From Escherichia phage ES12, in sequence record MN508614.1: a stretch of DNA of 64,000 bases. One strand, written 5' to 3'. Every line of letters begins with the position of its first letter. The stretch's first letter is position 1. Shown here one piece after another: positions 15,917 through 30,976 of this stretch. Under the pieces are notes generated by a model. That model saw nothing but the letters and a program-made list of their open reading frames with translations. It ran no database searches and was not told where the DNA came from. The position numbers were made by a program, and so were the translations under genes.

Positions 15917-16336
15917 TTATTCCTTAAAGTGAGCTTTCAACATCTGATACAAGGACCATGCTTGTTCATTATTTTCAATAGTAACTTTCATGATCGGGAA
16001 TTCTGTGAAATCTTCTATTTGTTCTTGCTCTTCCTGCTCTTGTTCTTCAGCTGCCTGATATGGATTTTCCACTTCATTAAAGAACTCAGCTTCGCTCGTT
16101 GAAAGCCAAATAAAATCTTCATCCAAAATATCTTTACCGGAGGATAACGCCAATCTTCCAGTAGATGTCACAATTTTAGTAGGACGACCAAGATGGTCAA
16201 TATCTATAACTTTAAAAGGTTCCATACCTAAACGCCGCGCATAGATTCCGTTATCAGTATGGTCTTTAATAAAATTTTCTTGAGCTTGTTTATTTTTAAA
16301 TTGATACCATTTATTAACTTCGAATTTAATAGCCAT
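15917..16336 (-). CDS. Hypothetical protein, 139 aa, acidic EQEQEEQEQ tract (goF position)
   Basis: Position corresponds to the T4 goF region; no motif evidence for function. Confidence 0.55.
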
Positions 16337-16563
16337 TAATAAATTTCCTTCCAGTAAGTTGTGCCGTCTTCAGTAATTTCACGAAATACACCGTAAATTG
16401 GTTGTTTATCACCGACTTTCTCATACACATAAACTGAAGTCAAGTGAGTAAACTTGACAGTGTGTTCCTTTTGAACTACTACCAAATTTGGATCAAATAA
16501 TACATCTTCAAATTCATCATTAGTGCAGTTCTGAACAATTTTGTGTTTCATTACATTCTCCAA
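16336..16563 (-). CDS. Hypothetical protein, 75 aa
   Basis: ATG at 16563 directly after a promoter-leader cassette. Confidence 0.55.
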
Positions 16564-16569
16564 GTTTCT

Positions 16570-16640
16570 GTATCAGTAGTTGATATTGATATAGTACCAT
16601 AATCAACTACTGATGTATATAGTTTTATGAAAAAATTTTA
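16570..16640 (-). promoter_or_regulatory. Degenerate early-promoter/leader cassette upstream of the 75-aa ORF
   Basis: Contains the conserved TGgTACTAT element and AT-rich upstream region but no clear GTTTAC -35. Confidence 0.3.
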
Positions 16641-16644
16641 AACT

Positions 16645-17136
16645 TTATGCATAGCGAGCTTTGCTGTAGTGTTTAATCCAGCTTTCAGGAATGACTTTGT
16701 ATGTTCCTAAAAATACAACGTTGTACAACTTAACGCCATCTTCTACCCATTGATCAGTAATGTATGCACACATAGCGCGAGTACGGCGAGGAAGGGGTTG
16801 TCCACCTTCGGTAAATTCAAACTCATAAGGAGCAACGAACTTAATAGCTTGACCGAGTTTCCACTTAAAGTCTACACCTACATGCGAAGTATCAATCGTT
16901 TCAATTCCTTTAGCGGGAACAGCTTTCAAAAACGCAGGCTCAAGAAATTTCCATCGAACATAACCAAACTGAGGTTTAGACATTCCATCTTTAGGAATGA
17001 TACGCACTTTTACTTCAGAATCTTCATCTTTAACACCGTGTTTAAGCTGAATGCTTACGACTTCAACCAATTTTCCTGCTGCTTTAGAACGGGATTTATC
17101 AGATACACGAGCCAATTCACCAATATTAATAATCAT
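16645..17136 (-). CDS. motB: MotB-like protein, 163 aa
   Basis: Length and position match T4 motB; C-terminal domain is paralogous to the next ORF (ITDQWVEDGVKLYNVV). Confidence 0.55.
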   Translation of the reverse strand: MIINIGELARVSDKSRSKAAGKLVEVVSIQLKHGVKDEDSEVKVRIIPKDGMSKPQFGYVRWKFLEPAFLKAVPAKGIETIDTSHVGVDFKWKLGQAIKFVAPYEFEFTEGGQPLPRRTRAMCAYITDQWVEDGVKLYNVVFLGTYKVIPESWIKHYSKARYA

Positions 17137-17174
17137 AGTTATCTCTCACTTGTTAAAAAGATTTTATACTCCAC

Positions 17175-17212
17175 AGGACCATTATACTCTGGTCCCAAGA
17201 GTTTGTAAACTA
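17175..17212 (-). promoter_or_regulatory. Early sigma70 promoter upstream of motB
   Basis: Minus-strand GTTTAC-(18)-TATAAT. Confidence 0.5.
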
Positions 17213-17758
17213 TTAATTCAAAATAGCTACCACCGCACTACGAGGTACTACGCTAAAATCACCTGCATGAACAACGTTCAGAAGTTCAACACCATCTTCA
17301 ATCCACTGGTCTGTTACCCAACCACAGATAGGATTATCAAAAGGACGATGGATAGACACAGCAGCACACAACAGGTCTGTAGGGTCTTGTTCTTCAACTT
17401 CTTGGAACAGGATGAACTCATCTTCATAAACCAGGTTTTTCTTTATTTTGTTATTATCTAACCGGCGACCGTGGATGACGTAAGATTTATCAAACCACTC
17501 ACTTTTGGCAAATTCTTCAACAATAAATTCGCCTTCGCCAAAAACATCAGTCAGAGTTTTATGACCAGAAATCAAGGCATTAGTTTTAATTTTAGGTTCA
17601 ACCAGTTTGTAGGTTTTGCCGATTTCAATAGCGGTAGTCATAGTAGGTTCCTTAATTTCCAGTGGTTTAACAGGGCATACATAAGTGCTTACAACATCAA
17701 AATCAATCAGTTTAGCTACCGGATTTGGTATGTATTCAGGATTATAATTAAATTTCAT
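17213..17758 (-). CDS. MotB paralogue, 181 aa (motB.1 position)
   Basis: C-terminal VTDQWIEDGVELLNVV block parallels the motB-like ORF. Confidence 0.6.
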   Translation of the reverse strand: MKFNYNPEYIPNPVAKLIDFDVVSTYVCPVKPLEIKEPTMTTAIEIGKTYKLVEPKIKTNALISGHKTLTDVFGEGEFIVEEFAKSEWFDKSYVIHGRRLDNNKIKKNLVYEDEFILFQEVEEQDPTDLLCAAVSIHRPFDNPICGWVTDQWIEDGVELLNVVHAGDFSVVPRSAVVAILN

Positions 17759-17760
17759 AA

Positions 17761-18261
17761 TTATCTCATTTCAATAAAATCTACGAGTTCAGCATGCGAT
17801 TTGCGGAACATTACTTGGTGCCCACCAATGATAACTTCATCTTCAGGAACTTCGTATACAGCGAGATAAAATCCTTTAGAAGATAATTCTTCCCGCTCTT
17901 CTCGTGTGAACCATCTCATCATATCATACTCACTAGCGAAAGCAAAATGATAAAGAGCTATAAACCATCCTGGAATATGATATTCTACTCCAACATAATC
18001 TTTCTTGAACTTAGTATTAATTACTATATTAGCGTTTTTAACTAATAGTTTATCTTCGTGTGGTAAAGGAATTCTTTTATTATTATCGCTATGATGCATA
18101 AAATTAGGTCTGTCATAACCTACGTGTAATAGCCACTCTTCGCTCCATGAATCTATTATACTCCTGTACGGCGTTATTTGAACACAAAGATTTCGACGTA
18201 TTGTTATAGCATCTTCATAATCAAGAATACTAAACGATGATTCAACACGATAAATTTTCAT
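17761..18261 (-). CDS. Hypothetical protein, 166 aa (motB.2 position)
   Basis: Minus-strand ORF downstream of an early promoter. Confidence 0.6.
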   Translation of the reverse strand: MKIYRVESSFSILDYEDAITIRRNLCVQITPYRSIIDSWSEEWLLHVGYDRPNFMHHSDNNKRIPLPHEDKLLVKNANIVINTKFKKDYVGVEYHIPGWFIALYHFAFASEYDMMRWFTREEREELSSKGFYLAVYEVPEDEVIIGGHQVMFRKSHAELVDFIEMR

Positions 18262-18284
18262 TTTATTATCCTCAGTAGCTATGG

Positions 18285-18320
18285 TGTTATAATACCATAA
18301 CTAACCGAGGAAGTAAACAA
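18285..18320 (-). promoter_or_regulatory. Early promoter
   Basis: Minus-strand GTTTAC-(18)-TATTAT. Confidence 0.45.
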
Positions 18321-18323
18321 CTT

Positions 18324-19007
18324 TTATCGTTTTGTTGGAAGAGATAGAGGATCGCACTCTTCCTCTGATGGAGCGTCTTCAAGACCCATAGCATATCGCA
18401 AAGCATACTTCATCATCAGAATGTCTTTCGCACAGTCATGAATAGAATCATGCGCAACGAATCCATCTAAAGTTCCCTTTGGAAGAGGACATGTGGTCAT
18501 ATCACGAACAAGCAGAAGTGCTTCAATTCTGGTACGAATATCACGCTGATTCCAAAATTTACATGGTTCTAACTTAAATGTGTCAAGCTCATTCTCAGAT
18601 ACACCATTAAGACGCTGAATATCACGAATGAGATCGACTAAAATTGGAAAATCAAATGACATTCCACGACACCAGCCTTGAGATTTCCAAGGATCGATAT
18701 TATGTGCATTAATGTAATCATTAAATTTTGCAATACCATCGATAGTGCTTACATCTTCATCGGATGGTGCAATATTTTTTCTAGCTTCAGGAGATTGATT
18801 CTTCCACCATTCGATAGTGCTTTTAGTAAAAAGACGATGTCCTTTTTGGCTTTTTAAATCAAACTTGATTTTAATGCCGCGTGAAACTAATTCATCAAAT
18901 GTTTCAACTACTTCTGGATTAGGGTCAAAGGCAATAACAGCCAAATCAATAACAGCTGCCTTTTCACCGCTTCCCATTGTTTCAAAATCTATAATAAAAT
19001 CAAACAT
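18324..19007 (-). CDS. dexA: Exonuclease A (DexA)
   Basis: 227 aa, DEDD-type exonuclease N-terminus (MFDFIIDFETMG); length matches T4 DexA. Confidence 0.9.
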   Translation of the reverse strand: MFDFIIDFETMGSGEKAAVIDLAVIAFDPNPEVVETFDELVSRGIKIKFDLKSQKGHRLFTKSTIEWWKNQSPEARKNIAPSDEDVSTIDGIAKFNDYINAHNIDPWKSQGWCRGMSFDFPILVDLIRDIQRLNGVSENELDTFKLEPCKFWNQRDIRTRIEALLLVRDMTTCPLPKGTLDGFVAHDSIHDCAKDILMMKYALRYAMGLEDAPSEEECDPLSLPTKR

Positions 19008-25941: not shown

Positions 25942-26151
25942 TTAAATTACATGATTATTTATAATAAATTCTCGCGGAACGTTAAAATACCCGATTTTAG
26001 TTAATATAACAACATCGCCGTTAATAATTACCGGAGAATAATCTTCTGGAGCATTAAATTTCCAATGGGCTCTAATATTATATCCATCAGAACCAAATGC
26101 TCGCGTAGCTGGTCTCCCAGCTTTTTGCCATGCGTAGAAATCAAATTTCAT
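25942..26151 (-). CDS. Hypothetical protein, 69 aa
   Basis: Minus-strand ORF between gene 56 and soc. Confidence 0.5.
   Translation of the reverse strand: MKFDFYAWQKAGRPATRAFGSDGYNIRAHWKFNAPEDYSPVIINGDVVILTKIGYFNVPREFIINNHVI
25956..25963 (-). promoter_or_regulatory. Late promoter (TATAAATA) for soc
   Basis: Exact TATAAATA on the minus strand about 30 nt upstream of the soc ATG, followed by AAAGGAG SD. Confidence 0.5.
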
Positions 26152-26342
26152 TTTGAATGCTCTATAATTAATTTTAAAGCTTCTTCACTGACAAAAATTT
26201 CGTCAGGACCTTCTATAACTTCAACCATACGAAGTTGATTAGTTAAGAGCTCACATACGAGCTCCTTGTTATAATCTTTAAATAGCTGGTCAATACGTTT
26301 CTTGTGGGCTTTCTTAAGCTGGCGTTTATTTAAACGAGCCAT
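26148..26342 (-). CDS. Hypothetical basic protein, 64 aa
   Basis: Minus-strand ORF overlapping the gene 56 stop. Confidence 0.5.
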   Translation of the reverse strand: MARLNKRQLKKAHKKRIDQLFKDYNKELVCELLTNQLRMVEVIEGPDEIFVSEEALKLIIEHSK

Positions 26343-26860
26343 TAATAACCTCGGTCTTGACGAGCGAAGTTTTCAGCATTTTTCAGATAATAAAGTTTAA
26401 AGATTTCTTCAGCCGTAAGACCGAGGCCTTGGAACATGTTCAGAACGAAATGAAGAATATCAATCATTTCGAATTTAATTTCCAACTGGTCTTGTGGAGA
26501 CAAATCAGTAATCAGAGTTTCACGTCGTTCACCATGTTGAGCTTTCCAAGGCTTCCATACAGCAGATGCATCTTTTTCACCATTGCTCATACCACCAAGA
26601 GAAGTCAATAGTTCGCGGAATTCATCATCAATATAATCTTTCTGATTACGCAGCCAATCAACAACTTCACCCGCAGTAGCCAAATCATCAGGATGACGGT
26701 TATATTCAGGTTTATCTTTAGCTAAACGAACCTGCAGAGATTTCTGCATATCAAGCATAACTTGCAACGGGTCTTTTTCATCACCGAGAATATCCCAGTA
26801 TTCATTTTGAGCTTTATCAGCGCCTTCAATCAGTTGTGAACATTCATTAAAGTATGCCAT
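26342..26860 (-). CDS. 56: dCTP pyrophosphatase (dCTPase/dUTPase) gp56
   Basis: 172 aa from MAYFNECSQLIEGADKAQNEY..., MazG-like; the track ORF extends 31 codons upstream. Confidence 0.85.
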   Translation of the reverse strand: MAYFNECSQLIEGADKAQNEYWDILGDEKDPLQVMLDMQKSLQVRLAKDKPEYNRHPDDLATAGEVVDWLRNQKDYIDDEFRELLTSLGGMSNGEKDASAVWKPWKAQHGERRETLITDLSPQDQLEIKFEMIDILHFVLNMFQGLGLTAEEIFKLYYLKNAENFARQDRGY

Positions 26861-26931
26861 TATTTTTCCTTTCAATTCATGGGTTAGTAGATTAATTATA
26901 CAATAAATATATAAAGCAATAAGGAGGACAT

Positions 26932-27132
26932 ATGGTACAAAAATTAATGGCACTTGTTAATGCCATCAAAGGTAATAAAAAGCGTATAGCTTTTACTATT
27001 TCTGCTATGGTAGGAATTTTACTCTGGAACTTTATTTTATCACCTGTTGCAATTGCACATGGTATTAATATTCCAGTAGTTACTCTTGATACATTCGTAG
27101 ATTTAGCATTTGCTTTGGTTGGGTTAATTTAA
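26932..27132 (+). CDS. Membrane protein, 66 aa, plus strand, convergent with gene 61
   Basis: Strong SD AAGGAGG 5 nt before the ATG; two hydrophobic helices. Confidence 0.5.
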   Translation: MVQKLMALVNAIKGNKKRIAFTISAMVGILLWNFILSPVAIAHGINIPVVTLDTFVDLAFALVGLI

Positions 27133-28157
27133 ATCTTAGCATATTTAGATAGCCGCATTTTAGCCATCAACCCTTGGGCAATATTATTTTTCATATATTC
27201 CATAATTTGTTTAGGGGTTGCACCTTCCTTTCTAATCATATCATTAACATCTTTTGATTTCCAGGGAGATTTGTCCCAAAACATAACCCTTTCTCCTGCA
27301 TCAACCAATTTAGTCATTCGTTTAATAGTGTCAGGGTGACGAGGTTCATTATCTAAAACCCATACACGTCTATCTTTAAATGGAACAATTTCTAGGTCTA
27401 ATTGACCACCCGTAATAGCTATACCATTTTCAATAAAAAGTGAATCTATAGGTCCTTCTAGAACATATACATCACCATCTTTAACTCGTTCGACTCCATA
27501 GATTTTTGTTGCCTCAGGATAAGCTTTAATGGTGATATATTTTTGAGGAGCATTTTTCTTTAATGCACGTCCTTGAAAAGACTCAGCTTTTCCATTAGCA
27601 TTATAAATTGGAATAACAAGACGAGGCTCAGATATTTCCTTTTTATATGTTCCCGGTGCTATGCTATTAACCAATTTAGGCCATTCGGTTGTAAACCAAA
27701 GATATTTCCATTTATCCTTTGGAATACAACGAGCTTTTACATATTTTATAATTGGATGGTCTTCCGCCAGTTTATCTAATCTAACACATGACGGAAGAGA
27801 TTTAATTATTTTCTTCTCAGGTTGTTTAGGAAGTTCTTTAGGTTTTTCTACTGGACGACTTTTACCTTTTTCTTTTCTTATTTCAAAGATATACTCACGA
27901 TATAAATCGGGTTCAAACTCCTTTAAATATATTCCGATTGGTGCATGATAGTTACAGTTATAACAATGAATATTTCCTTCATTATTATCACCATAATACC
28001 ATCCACGGGCTTTATTCTGGTCGGTTTTTGAATCTCCACACACTGGGCATCTAAACCGTAATTTAAAAGTTGAACTATTATTTACTTGTGTGAATTTAGG
28101 TAAATGAGCTAATGCACGATACGCAAACTCATTATCAATCCAAGGTATTGATGACAT
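27129..28157 (-). CDS. 61: DNA primase gp61
   Basis: 342 aa, N-terminal zinc ribbon CPVCGDSK...CYNC and Toprim; length matches T4 gp61. Confidence 0.95.
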   Translation of the reverse strand: MSSIPWIDNEFAYRALAHLPKFTQVNNSSTFKLRFRCPVCGDSKTDQNKARGWYYGDNNEGNIHCYNCNYHAPIGIYLKEFEPDLYREYIFEIRKEKGKSRPVEKPKELPKQPEKKIIKSLPSCVRLDKLAEDHPIIKYVKARCIPKDKWKYLWFTTEWPKLVNSIAPGTYKKEISEPRLVIPIYNANGKAESFQGRALKKNAPQKYITIKAYPEATKIYGVERVKDGDVYVLEGPIDSLFIENGIAITGGQLDLEIVPFKDRRVWVLDNEPRHPDTIKRMTKLVDAGERVMFWDKSPWKSKDVNDMIRKEGATPKQIMEYMKNNIAQGLMAKMRLSKYAKI

Positions 28158-29548: not shown

Positions 29549-30976
29549 CTAAAATTTTAATTCATTTGCCAAAGCATCTAACTGAGCTCGAGTCGATTCG
29601 TTTCTTTGATAGCGATTCTGCTCAGCTTGTATCTGTTGTGAACCTGCTACCTCACTCACTTCAGTTGGAGTAGAATCTTGTTCAATTTCTACCCATTTCT
29701 GATTTCCTTTTTGAACACCCATCAAAAACTTATTCCATTTGTTCTTATCGCCATATCGTGATTTGATTTGCTTAATGAGTTGCTGTTCAGCAGCTGCTAA
29801 CTCCTCGGTTTCAATGACCGCAAGCATAAAATCGGCTGTTGCTGGAAGACCGGCAGATTCTGCGATATCACTCATGTTAACATCAGAAGAATCCCAAGCT
29901 TGTTTACCAACCTGTGCTGCGGTCCAAAGAACAGTTTCGGTTTCAACAGCCAGAGCACGCAATTCCTCTGCGATAGCTTTAACAGTTGTGTAACTATTTT
30001 CTGAATAAACTCTAATGCGGCAAGATTTACAAATACCCAGATAGTCAACAATAATGATTGTTGGAACAAAATTCTTCTTGAGCTTTAATTCATTTAAAAG
30101 TGATCGAAATGTATTAGCGTCTGCTCCACCAGTAGGATACTGTTTAACGATTAAACGACCAAGAGTAGATTTCTCACGCCATTTTTCCATTTTTCCTTTA
30201 TACTCAGCGTAAGAAATATGCCCATCATCAATGTCATCAAGAGAAACATCAAGCATATTAGCATCAATACGCTTAGCACAGACTTCTTCTGCCATTTCCA
30301 TGGAAATGTAAAGAACATTATGTCCGAGCTGCAAATAATCTGCTGCCAATGAACACAGACCTAATGACTTACCAACGTTAACGCCAGCCATTAAAACGTT
30401 CAGTGTTCCTGTCTCAGCTCCGCCTTTAGTAATTTTGTTTAGAATTCTGAGTTTAAATGGAACTTTACGAGCTTTATTCATATAAGATAGCCAGCGTGCT
30501 TCGTAGTCATCCATCCAATCATGACCAACGTAGCTATCAAATGAAATTGATAATGCTTGACGCATGATATCAGGAATAGCACCTACATCTGGCATTTTCT
30601 TATTTCGTTTTTCCGGAGGAAGTTCAGCATTAGTTTGGATTTCAATTATTTTAGACGTAGCATTAAACATCGCCCTTTGCTGAACATATTTTTCTGTTTC
30701 TTTTACTAACCAACTGTGGTCTTCCGGAGAATCAGCCAGTTTTGAAATAAGTGTTTTTACACCAGAATATTCTGTTTCAGTAAATGAACTATTTTCTAAT
30801 GCAACATTTAACGCATTAATAGATGGAACGCTATGATACTCATTAACATGAGATTTAATTAATTTGAATGTATTTTTAGCTGGACCACTTTCAAAATATT
30901 CTGAATCCATATATGGCCAAACTTTTGAAAAATAAGCTTGATCAAATATAAGATGAGAAAGAATAATTTCTACCAC
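29549..30976 (-). CDS. 41: Replicative helicase gp41 (DnaB-like)
   Basis: 475 aa; length and position match T4 gp41. Confidence 0.97.
   Translation of the reverse strand: MVEIILSHLIFDQAYFSKVWPYMDSEYFESGPAKNTFKLIKSHVNEYHSVPSINALNVALENSSFTETEYSGVKTLISKLADSPEDHSWLVKETEKYVQQRAMFNATSKIIEIQTNAELPPEKRNKKMPDVGAIPDIMRQALSISFDSYVGHDWMDDYEARWLSYMNKARKVPFKLRILNKITKGGAETGTLNVLMAGVNVGKSLGLCSLAADYLQLGHNVLYISMEMAEEVCAKRIDANMLDVSLDDIDDGHISYAEYKGKMEKWREKSTLGRLIVKQYPTGGADANTFRSLLNELKLKKNFVPTIIIVDYLGICKSCRIRVYSENSYTTVKAIAEELRALAVETETVLWTAAQVGKQAWDSSDVNMSDIAESAGLPATADFMLAVIETEELAAAEQQLIKQIKSRYGDKNKWNKFLMGVQKGNQKWVEIEQDSTPTEVSEVAGSQQIQAEQNRYQRNESTRAQLDALANELKF

Follow-up and report, generated by a model that had tools for sequence, protein, structure and literature searches.

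Organization of the gene 56-61 interval in a T4-like Escherichia phage: a dam-less arrangement with a conserved, probably late-transcribed microprotein gene

Gene organization

The window, that is, the whole 64,000-nucleotide stretch analyzed here (Escherichia phage ES12, MN508614.1), is an exact copy of positions 96352-160351 of Escherichia phage ES26 (MN508618.1, Tequatrovirus gee9062), and a 1.9-kb query around the 56-61 locus gave a 100% match to ES26. The ES26 genome (166,756 bp), reconstructed from the window and the sequences L003-L005, was used for genome-wide searches. Gene identities in the window were assigned by comparison with the annotation of T4 and T6, and the following features were recognized.

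26342-26860, minus strand: gene 56 (dCTPase/dUTPase), homologous to and colinear with T4 gene 56 and the annotated gp56 of T6
26895-26920, minus strand: MotA-type middle promoter of gene 56, placed by alignment to the T4 upstream region, its function assigned by homology
26902-26909, plus strand: late-promoter-like motif AATAAATA, the A(-13) variant of T4 TATAAATA, activity predicted
26921-26927, plus strand: Shine-Dalgarno sequence AAGGAGG
26932-27132, plus strand: 66-aa microprotein ORF, called "Dam.1" in the T6 record and matching PHROG 2024 over its full length (E 1.4e-31)
26934-26969, minus strand: intrinsic-terminator-like hairpin and U-run, from a terminator scan (RNA fold z = -3.6)
27129-28157, minus strand: gene 61 (DNA primase), its protein nearly identical to T4 gp61
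29549-30976, following gene 61: gene 41, from comparison with T4 and T6 annotation

The gap between genes 56 and 61 extends from 26861 to 27128 (268 bp), and the microprotein ORF is the only one of at least 30 aa in it. The ORF listing and the sequence confirmed what a preliminary description of this DNA had reported here, namely an interval of about 270 bp with a single plus-strand ORF of 66 aa, preceded by an AAGGAGG Shine-Dalgarno sequence and convergent with gene 61. The Shine-Dalgarno sequence lies 4 nt 5' of the ATG, and the stop codons of the two convergent genes overlap by 4 nt within the palindrome ATTTAAAT. The ORF listing contained no minus-strand ORF covering 26954-27128. The true start of gene 56 is the ATG at 26860-26858 (minus strand); a 203-aa GTG-started ORF in the same frame was rejected as a merely open upstream extension. 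Signals are crowded in the interval; on the opposite strand, the same 110 bp holds the middle promoter of gene 56 (oriA) and the terminator of gene 61.

Absence of dam

The preliminary description had placed dam between genes 56 and 61 in T4 and, provided that this order was correct, had concluded that the gene is missing from this canonical site. The T4 order was right; in NC_000866 gene 56 occupies 16270-16785, dam 16846-17625 and gene 61 17935-18963. The conclusion held as well, as the gap contains the microprotein ORF only and a search with T4 Dam came back empty. Using tblastn, no homologue of T4 Dam was found in the 64-kb window (best E 0.68) or in the whole ES26 genome of 166,756 bp (best E 1.0). 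A profile HMM built from three Dam proteins and run on every six-frame segment of ES26 reached no better than E 0.11, as compared with 4.5e-170 for the T4 locus that served as positive control. The statement that the window shows no methyltransferase motifs was borne out by this tblastn result and by the lack of any window ORF of at least 100 aa with both a DPPY-type and an FxGxG motif. The whole-genome motif search that had been proposed gave the same picture: no ES26 ORF of at least 100 aa combined [DNS]PP[YFW] with FxGxG, and the five matches to the former in ORFs of this size fell in the neck protein, a GIY-YIG endonuclease and small T4-type ORFs, none of them methyltransferase-like. ES26 is without dam at the 56-61 site and anywhere in its genome, so that no phage Dam is made and the virion DNA should carry no phage-made GATC N6-methyladenine. 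Neither finding named beforehand as refuting was obtained, since dam of T4 does sit between 56 and 61 and ES26 has no dam homologue elsewhere.

The Dam target GATC was counted 206 times in the ES26 genome, against about 543 expected from base composition.

Comparison with T4 and boundaries of the dam site

The dam-61 gap of T4 measures 309 bp and holds the same plus-strand ORF of 66 aa, 64/66 identical and behind the same Shine-Dalgarno sequence (NC_000866 17738-17938; 4739-4939 of the extracted T4 locus, L001). Relative to the ES26 junction, T4 has 878 bp of extra DNA (L001 3848-4725), made up of the 780-bp dam coding sequence with its own leader and promoter. Based on the early-strand alignment, this unit sits exactly between the MotA box of gene 56 (ATTGCTT) and the Shine-Dalgarno sequence of the microprotein; T4 homology to the window ends at about 26900 on the left and restarts at 26921 on the right. 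In ES26 the MotA box and the Shine-Dalgarno sequence abut, and the empty dam site is at 26920/26921. The T4 56-dam-61 region (NC_000866 16270-18963; X01416) thus resembles that of ES26 in its colinear genes 56 and 61, MotA-type promoter, microprotein ORF and minus-strand hairpin, and differs in the presence of the 878-bp dam unit, in the late-promoter-like motif (GATAAATA in T4, AATAAATA in ES26) and in the ORF being unannotated in RefSeq.

Both dam and the microprotein ORF are also found together in phage G9062, the exemplar of Tequatrovirus gee9062, the species of ES26. The preliminary description had placed the microprotein there "instead" of dam. This was wrong; the microprotein is not a dam substitute, because T4 and G9062 carry both. 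Judged from these alignments, the microprotein gene is the fixed part of the locus, and it is dam that varies.

Between soc and gene 56 (window 25942-26342, minus strand) two small ORFs of 69 and 64 aa were noted, which are T6ORF029 and soc.2 in the T6 record. T4 has the SegF homing endonuclease where ES26 has these ORFs beside gene 56. As small ORFs stand in the place of segF and the dam site is empty, both of these T4-specific neighbours of gene 56 are missing in ES26.

Distribution and history of the dam-less arrangement

A query with the 272-bp interval matched 506 phage records, and 336 of these align over at least 80% of its length as a single match. Such an alignment is impossible with an insertion, so these records are dam-less. 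At an identity of at least 90%, the microprotein ORF was present in 502 records and T4-type Dam in 182. By this count roughly two thirds of the sequenced Tequatroviruses, T6 included, appear to be dam-less. The dam-less order of gene 56, ORF and gene 61 was likewise found in all five other genera of Tevenvirinae that were compared, namely Mosigvirus, Kanagawavirus, Dhakavirus JS98, Jiaodavirus and Gelderlandvirus, and in T6 and three metagenomic lineages; the position of the microprotein between 56 and 61 is kept in six genera. In classical work T2 and T4, but not T6, reportedly induce DNA adenine methylase. The presence/absence polymorphism of dam at 56-61 has already been published (PMC13390438). 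The arrangement in ES26 is ordinary and already known for T-even phages, and the oddity implied by the preliminary description disappears, the dam-less state being that of the majority in Tequatrovirus, shared by T6 and five other genera and on record in the literature.

G9062, which belongs to the same species as ES26, and the Durham phages Geo, EL and BGP use the same insertion site but, unlike ES26, have two extra genes there, one restriction-enzyme-like and the other dam (PMC13390438). No restriction-enzyme-like gene was found anywhere in ES26. That the same-species exemplar carries both genes at this point, and that the ES26 junction is precise, could be taken to mean that the dam-less state of ES26 is derived, a dam-carrying ancestor having undergone a recent deletion. 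We consider this unlikely, as the ES26 junction is essentially identical to that of T6 and of hundreds of other phages, dam is missing here in all five outgroup genera, and a Klebsiella T4-like phage has related Dam genes at another locus. By parsimony over the outgroup genera without dam, the dam-less state would be ancestral and dam an insertion; the outgroups, the common junction and the other locus, taken together, indicate that dam is an inserted mobile element whose alleles are swapped by recombination. Still less probable, to a degree that makes it almost negligible, is that ES26 compensates through an unrelated DNA methyltransferase elsewhere in its genome. The domain-library scans covered only part of the ES26 ORFs, which speaks for keeping it in mind, and a non-homologous enzyme is excluded at the motif level only. 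Nevertheless, neither tblastn nor the profile gave a Dam match, [DNS]PP[YFW] occurs only in the neck protein, the GIY-YIG endonuclease and small T4-type ORFs and never with FxGxG, and the ES26 genome is that of a typical Tequatrovirus. The 56-61 interval of ES26 is best explained as the allele without dam at a cassette site already known to vary among T-even phages. The full explanation, a dam-less allele together with a separate, conserved and probably late inner-membrane microprotein gene, is one that we hold with good confidence.

Directly upstream of dam, an ORF of 186-190 aa was observed in G9062 (L009 1441-2001) and in Klebsiella phage SmallBear (L028 1935-2507). It contains a PD...ExK-like motif (FDIVI...IIEIKHQ) and matches PADLOC REase_II (E 9e-5) and, weakly and below the cutoff, Pfam DpnII (E 0.0045). 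The two ORFs are 42% identical (E 2e-44), yet their loci differ, being 56-61 in G9062 and denB-ndd in SmallBear. These similarities point to a mobile two-gene cassette, resembling a GATC restriction-modification system and composed of the restriction-enzyme-like ORF and dam, of which T4 would keep dam alone. In Yersinia phage fPS-90 (L027 1-330) a homing endonuclease gene with a predicted middle promoter adjoins the microprotein ORF; this adds another variant to the same hyperplastic site.

As an accessory-gene polymorphism, the lack of dam is routine, and at most it helps in predicting how the phage copes with host defences. Carrying dam would be favoured by defences that cut unmethylated GATC, and lacking it by those that recognize N6-methyladenine or a phage methyltransferase; a retron activated by a phage methyltransferase is mentioned in a preprint (PMC12871103).

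Conservation of the microprotein gene

The microprotein of ES26 aligned to the PHROG 2024 profile (phrog_2024) with residues 2-66 on positions 1-65 of 65. Its ORF shares 97% identity with the T4 copy and 55% with that of Mosigvirus. HMMER, run exhaustively against 1.84 billion representative proteins, recovered 13 clusters of 57-70 aa with one architecture, consisting of a basic stretch, a hydrophobic helix with W-N-[FY]...P...A...G, and LP..(T/P)(L/I)(D/E). By tblastn, these proteins are encoded next to the primase gene in T4-like phages of Klebsiella, Salmonella, Citrobacter and Enterobacter as well.

The substitution pattern is that of a coding sequence. In close pairs dN/dS was 0.10-0.22, and ES26 differs from L013 by 9 synonymous and 4 non-synonymous changes. 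Between genera, synonymous sites are saturated (pS 0.7-0.8) and protein identity is still 50-67%. Substitutions were most frequent at the third codon position and least frequent at the second (ES26 versus moskry, 29/12/39 at positions 1/2/3), and the indels in the family are in frame, of 3 aa. On these comparative grounds, the ORF is judged to be a real gene under purifying selection, and we are strongly inclined to regard its product as a real, expressed membrane protein. Literature searches, T4 small proteins and transcript maps included, returned no report of a transcript or protein from this ORF in any phage.

The ORF might conceivably not be a gene at all, the 200 bp being conserved only as gene 61 3' UTR, terminator and promoter sequences with an incidental frame. 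In keeping with such a view, the minus-strand terminator hairpin lies within the 5' end of the ORF, the RefSeq records of T4 and JS98 do not annotate it, and its first codon in T6 is ATA. It is nonetheless highly improbable, as the frame stays open for 57-70 codons in every lineage despite saturated synonymous sites and AT-rich DNA, dN/dS is 0.1-0.2 with codon positions changing in the order 3>1>2 and with in-frame indels, a strong and correctly spaced Shine-Dalgarno sequence is present in every lineage, and the conserved GNK, WNF, P38, G44 and P48 are sensible only at the protein level. The substitution pattern led us to reject the ORF as a 3' UTR artefact of gene 61.

The T6 protein 'Dam.1' (AXN58073.1, MH550421) is encoded by the same gene, in the same position and orientation at a dam-less junction, and is identical in 65/66 residues over the full frame. 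T6 differs from ES26, which has ATG behind the Shine-Dalgarno sequence, in that codon 1 is ATA (L002 4072-4074); for this reason the protein was annotated from Met6, which has no Shine-Dalgarno sequence nearby. The ATA may represent reduced expression, a non-canonical start or a sequencing difference. As in T4, the ORF is missing from the RefSeq annotation of JS98 (L023 1774-1974); it is annotated in most newer T4-like genomes.

Transcription signals

On the minus strand, the promoter of gene 56 has its -10 sequence TATAAT at 26900-26895 and its MotA box ATTGCTT at 26920-26914. The T4 record X01416 annotates the same elements, with the mot-box ATTGCTT at 1487-1493 and the -10 sequence TATAAT at 1508-1513. 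The T4 counterpart of this promoter is P(M)16.53, the source of the oriA primer transcript.

The hairpin occupies 26969-26944 with 11 pairs and is followed by a U-run at 26943-26934 (UUUUUGU), antisense to codons 1-13 of the microprotein ORF. T4 has this hairpin too, the record of Yersinia phage fPS-90 labels the same element a terminator, and some of the other genera, though not all, possess similar ones. The hairpin probably ends the early gene 61 transcript. Since the terminator lies inside the 5' end of the ORF, the 3' UTR of gene 61 (about 190 nt) would be wholly antisense to the microprotein ORF.

Early and middle transcripts of T4 share one polarity, and the other strand yields only late transcripts (PMC2988020). 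T4 late promoters consist of an 8-bp TATAAATA box, in which A(-13) replaces T at 9 of the 50 sites listed by Geiduschek and Kassavetis (PMC2988020) and which spans -13 to -6 (PMC1524935). The motif AATAAATA of the window ends 22 nt 5' of the microprotein ATG, on the strand that is used by late transcripts only, and ATAAATA occurs just three times on the plus strand of the 64-kb window. From the position of the box, a start site at about 26915 and a leader of 17 nt are predicted. A NATAAATA motif was found 20-30 nt 5' of the start codon in nine of eleven lineages, in surroundings that cannot be aligned. It reads AATAAATA in ES26/T6, moskry, the P0042 lineage and JS98, GATAAATA in T4 and G9062, TATAAATA in both Kanagawaviruses, and CATAAATA in JD18 and in front of the tandem pair of L021; the remaining two, the P0039 lineage and Melville, have no clean NATAAATA. 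The GATAAATA of T4 is a rarer type of deviation and counts against a late promoter. No convincing match to a sigma-70-type promoter was found for the microprotein ORF.

Based on these signals, the microprotein is probably transcribed late. Late in infection, RNA polymerase carrying gp55 would start at AATAAATA, and the 17-nt leader with its strong Shine-Dalgarno sequence would direct synthesis of the 66-aa product. The putative late transcript would be antisense to the gene 61 3' UTR and, as no plus-strand terminator was found after the microprotein ORF (fold z about 0), probably also to the 3' end of the primase coding sequence.

Two further observations concern promoter sequences. The divergent promoters overlap, the plus-strand AATAAATA lying within the spacer between the MotA box and the -10 sequence of the minus-strand gene 56 promoter (26895-26920). 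The exact TATAAATA occurs once on both strands of the 64-kb window, upstream of soc (25956-25963, minus strand), as compared with 10.3 occurrences expected from shuffled sequences, which suggests that the late-promoter box is strongly avoided in the early region.

Properties and possible function of the microprotein

The predicted product has a mass of 7.1 kDa, a pI of 10 and a GRAVY of 1.25. Kyte-Doolittle analysis revealed two hydrophobic stretches, at about residues 19-42 and 45-66, with a peak of 2.0 over 19-41. AlphaFold2, run on a 13-sequence alignment, returned helices at 2-12, 16-42 and 52-63 with a mean pLDDT of 78, which corresponds to a basic N-terminal helix, a transmembrane helix at about 19-42 with the conserved WNF...P...G, and a short hydrophobic, acidic C-terminal helix. 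All five positive charges (K4, K13, K16, K17 and R18) precede the long helix, which, under the positive-inside rule, places the N-terminus in the cytoplasm.

The preliminary description had called the ORF a two-helix membrane protein. With two hydrophobic stretches this is plausible, although the second of them is perhaps not long enough to cross the membrane. The C-terminal 22 residues have transmembrane-level hydropathy in Tequatrovirus but include two conserved acidic residues, and distant family members have only about 10 hydrophobic residues after the conserved acidic pair. The AlphaFold helix in this segment is only 12 residues long, in contrast to its transmembrane-level hydropathy. The topology is ambiguous; on the predicted model we favour one transmembrane helix with an interfacial or periplasmic helix over a two-helix hairpin. 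Once the microprotein is inserted in the inner membrane, its WNF helix would span it, leaving the basic N-terminus in the cytoplasm and the short acidic-hydrophobic C-terminal helix on or past the periplasmic surface.

No informative match to the microprotein was obtained with Pfam, NCBIfam, PADLOC or Foldseek against BFVD, and a word-indexed search of 5.8 billion proteins and HMMER against 1.84 billion representatives found only its own family. Members are named 'hypothetical', 'putative membrane protein' or, automatically, 'holin' in the databases, and PHROG 2024 has no function assigned.

The label 'Holin' or 'putative holin' that some members bear in UniProt and GenBank, the small size with one or two hydrophobic helices, and the probable late expression agree with a holin or pinholin forming membrane lesions for lysis. 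We regard this as quite unlikely. The protein lacks a charged hydrophilic C-terminal tail, ending in ...DLAFALVGLI with all positive charge at the N-terminus; there is no endolysin or spanin neighbour, dCTPase and primase genes flanking it in all lineages examined; no Pfam holin matched and the fold search returned its own family only; and T-even phages already have holin T. It is also unlikely that the N-terminal 42 residues are a cleavable signal peptide or releasable signal anchor that gives rise to a periplasmic peptide of about 24 aa (HGINIPVVTLDTFVDLAFALVGLI). A basic n-region and a hydrophobic core are followed by P38-V-A-I-A42|H43-G, where P-x-A-x-A|H-G after the helix resembles a signal-peptidase site, and the small residues at -3 and -1 and the Pro at -5 recur across the family. 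The core of about 24 residues is, however, long for a cleaved signal, and the invariant W32-N33-F34 within it is unusual for a mere targeting sequence; its place inside the helix indicates that the helix is part of the functional protein. A signal anchor would find a loose parallel in FVLSPSIEA of the T4 RI signal-anchor-release domain, but the similarity is not significant, and the likeness of NFILSPVAIA to SFVLSPSIEA of T4 RI was dropped (BLASTP E 0.32, hhalign E 0.12).

The T4 RI antiholin and the class II holins and pinholins resemble the microprotein in size class, in an N-terminal or hairpin hydrophobic helix and in presumed late timing, which makes them a possible functional parallel only. 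The microprotein differs from RI in having no periplasmic globular domain, and from holins in having no charged C-terminal tail and no lysis-cassette context. As a guess, it may be a late-made inner-membrane accessory protein that acts on the envelope or on lysis timing, an assignment that we consider doubtful. Equally tentative is the broader proposal that T4 and most enterobacterial T-even-type phages share in this ORF an inner-membrane protein that is made late, has been overlooked, is functionally important and plays its own part in lysis timing, envelope integrity or superinfection exclusion; if so, the primase mRNA would, at its 3' end, also face the transcript of the ORF as an antisense RNA. 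The value that remains is one of annotation, in that a strongly conserved, apparently late membrane-protein gene is unannotated in the T4 and JS98 references, and the gene is a reasonable candidate for a knockout study.

No paralogue of the microprotein was found elsewhere in ES26. In a metagenomic T4-like contig (L021 2805-3198), two tandem, overlapping paralogues were observed behind a single CATAAATA box, one of the 'MGTVFYQIWKL...' type known from Dhakavirus and Kanagawavirus and the other of the 'MLKLPALL...AIKGNKK' type of Tequatrovirus and Mosigvirus.
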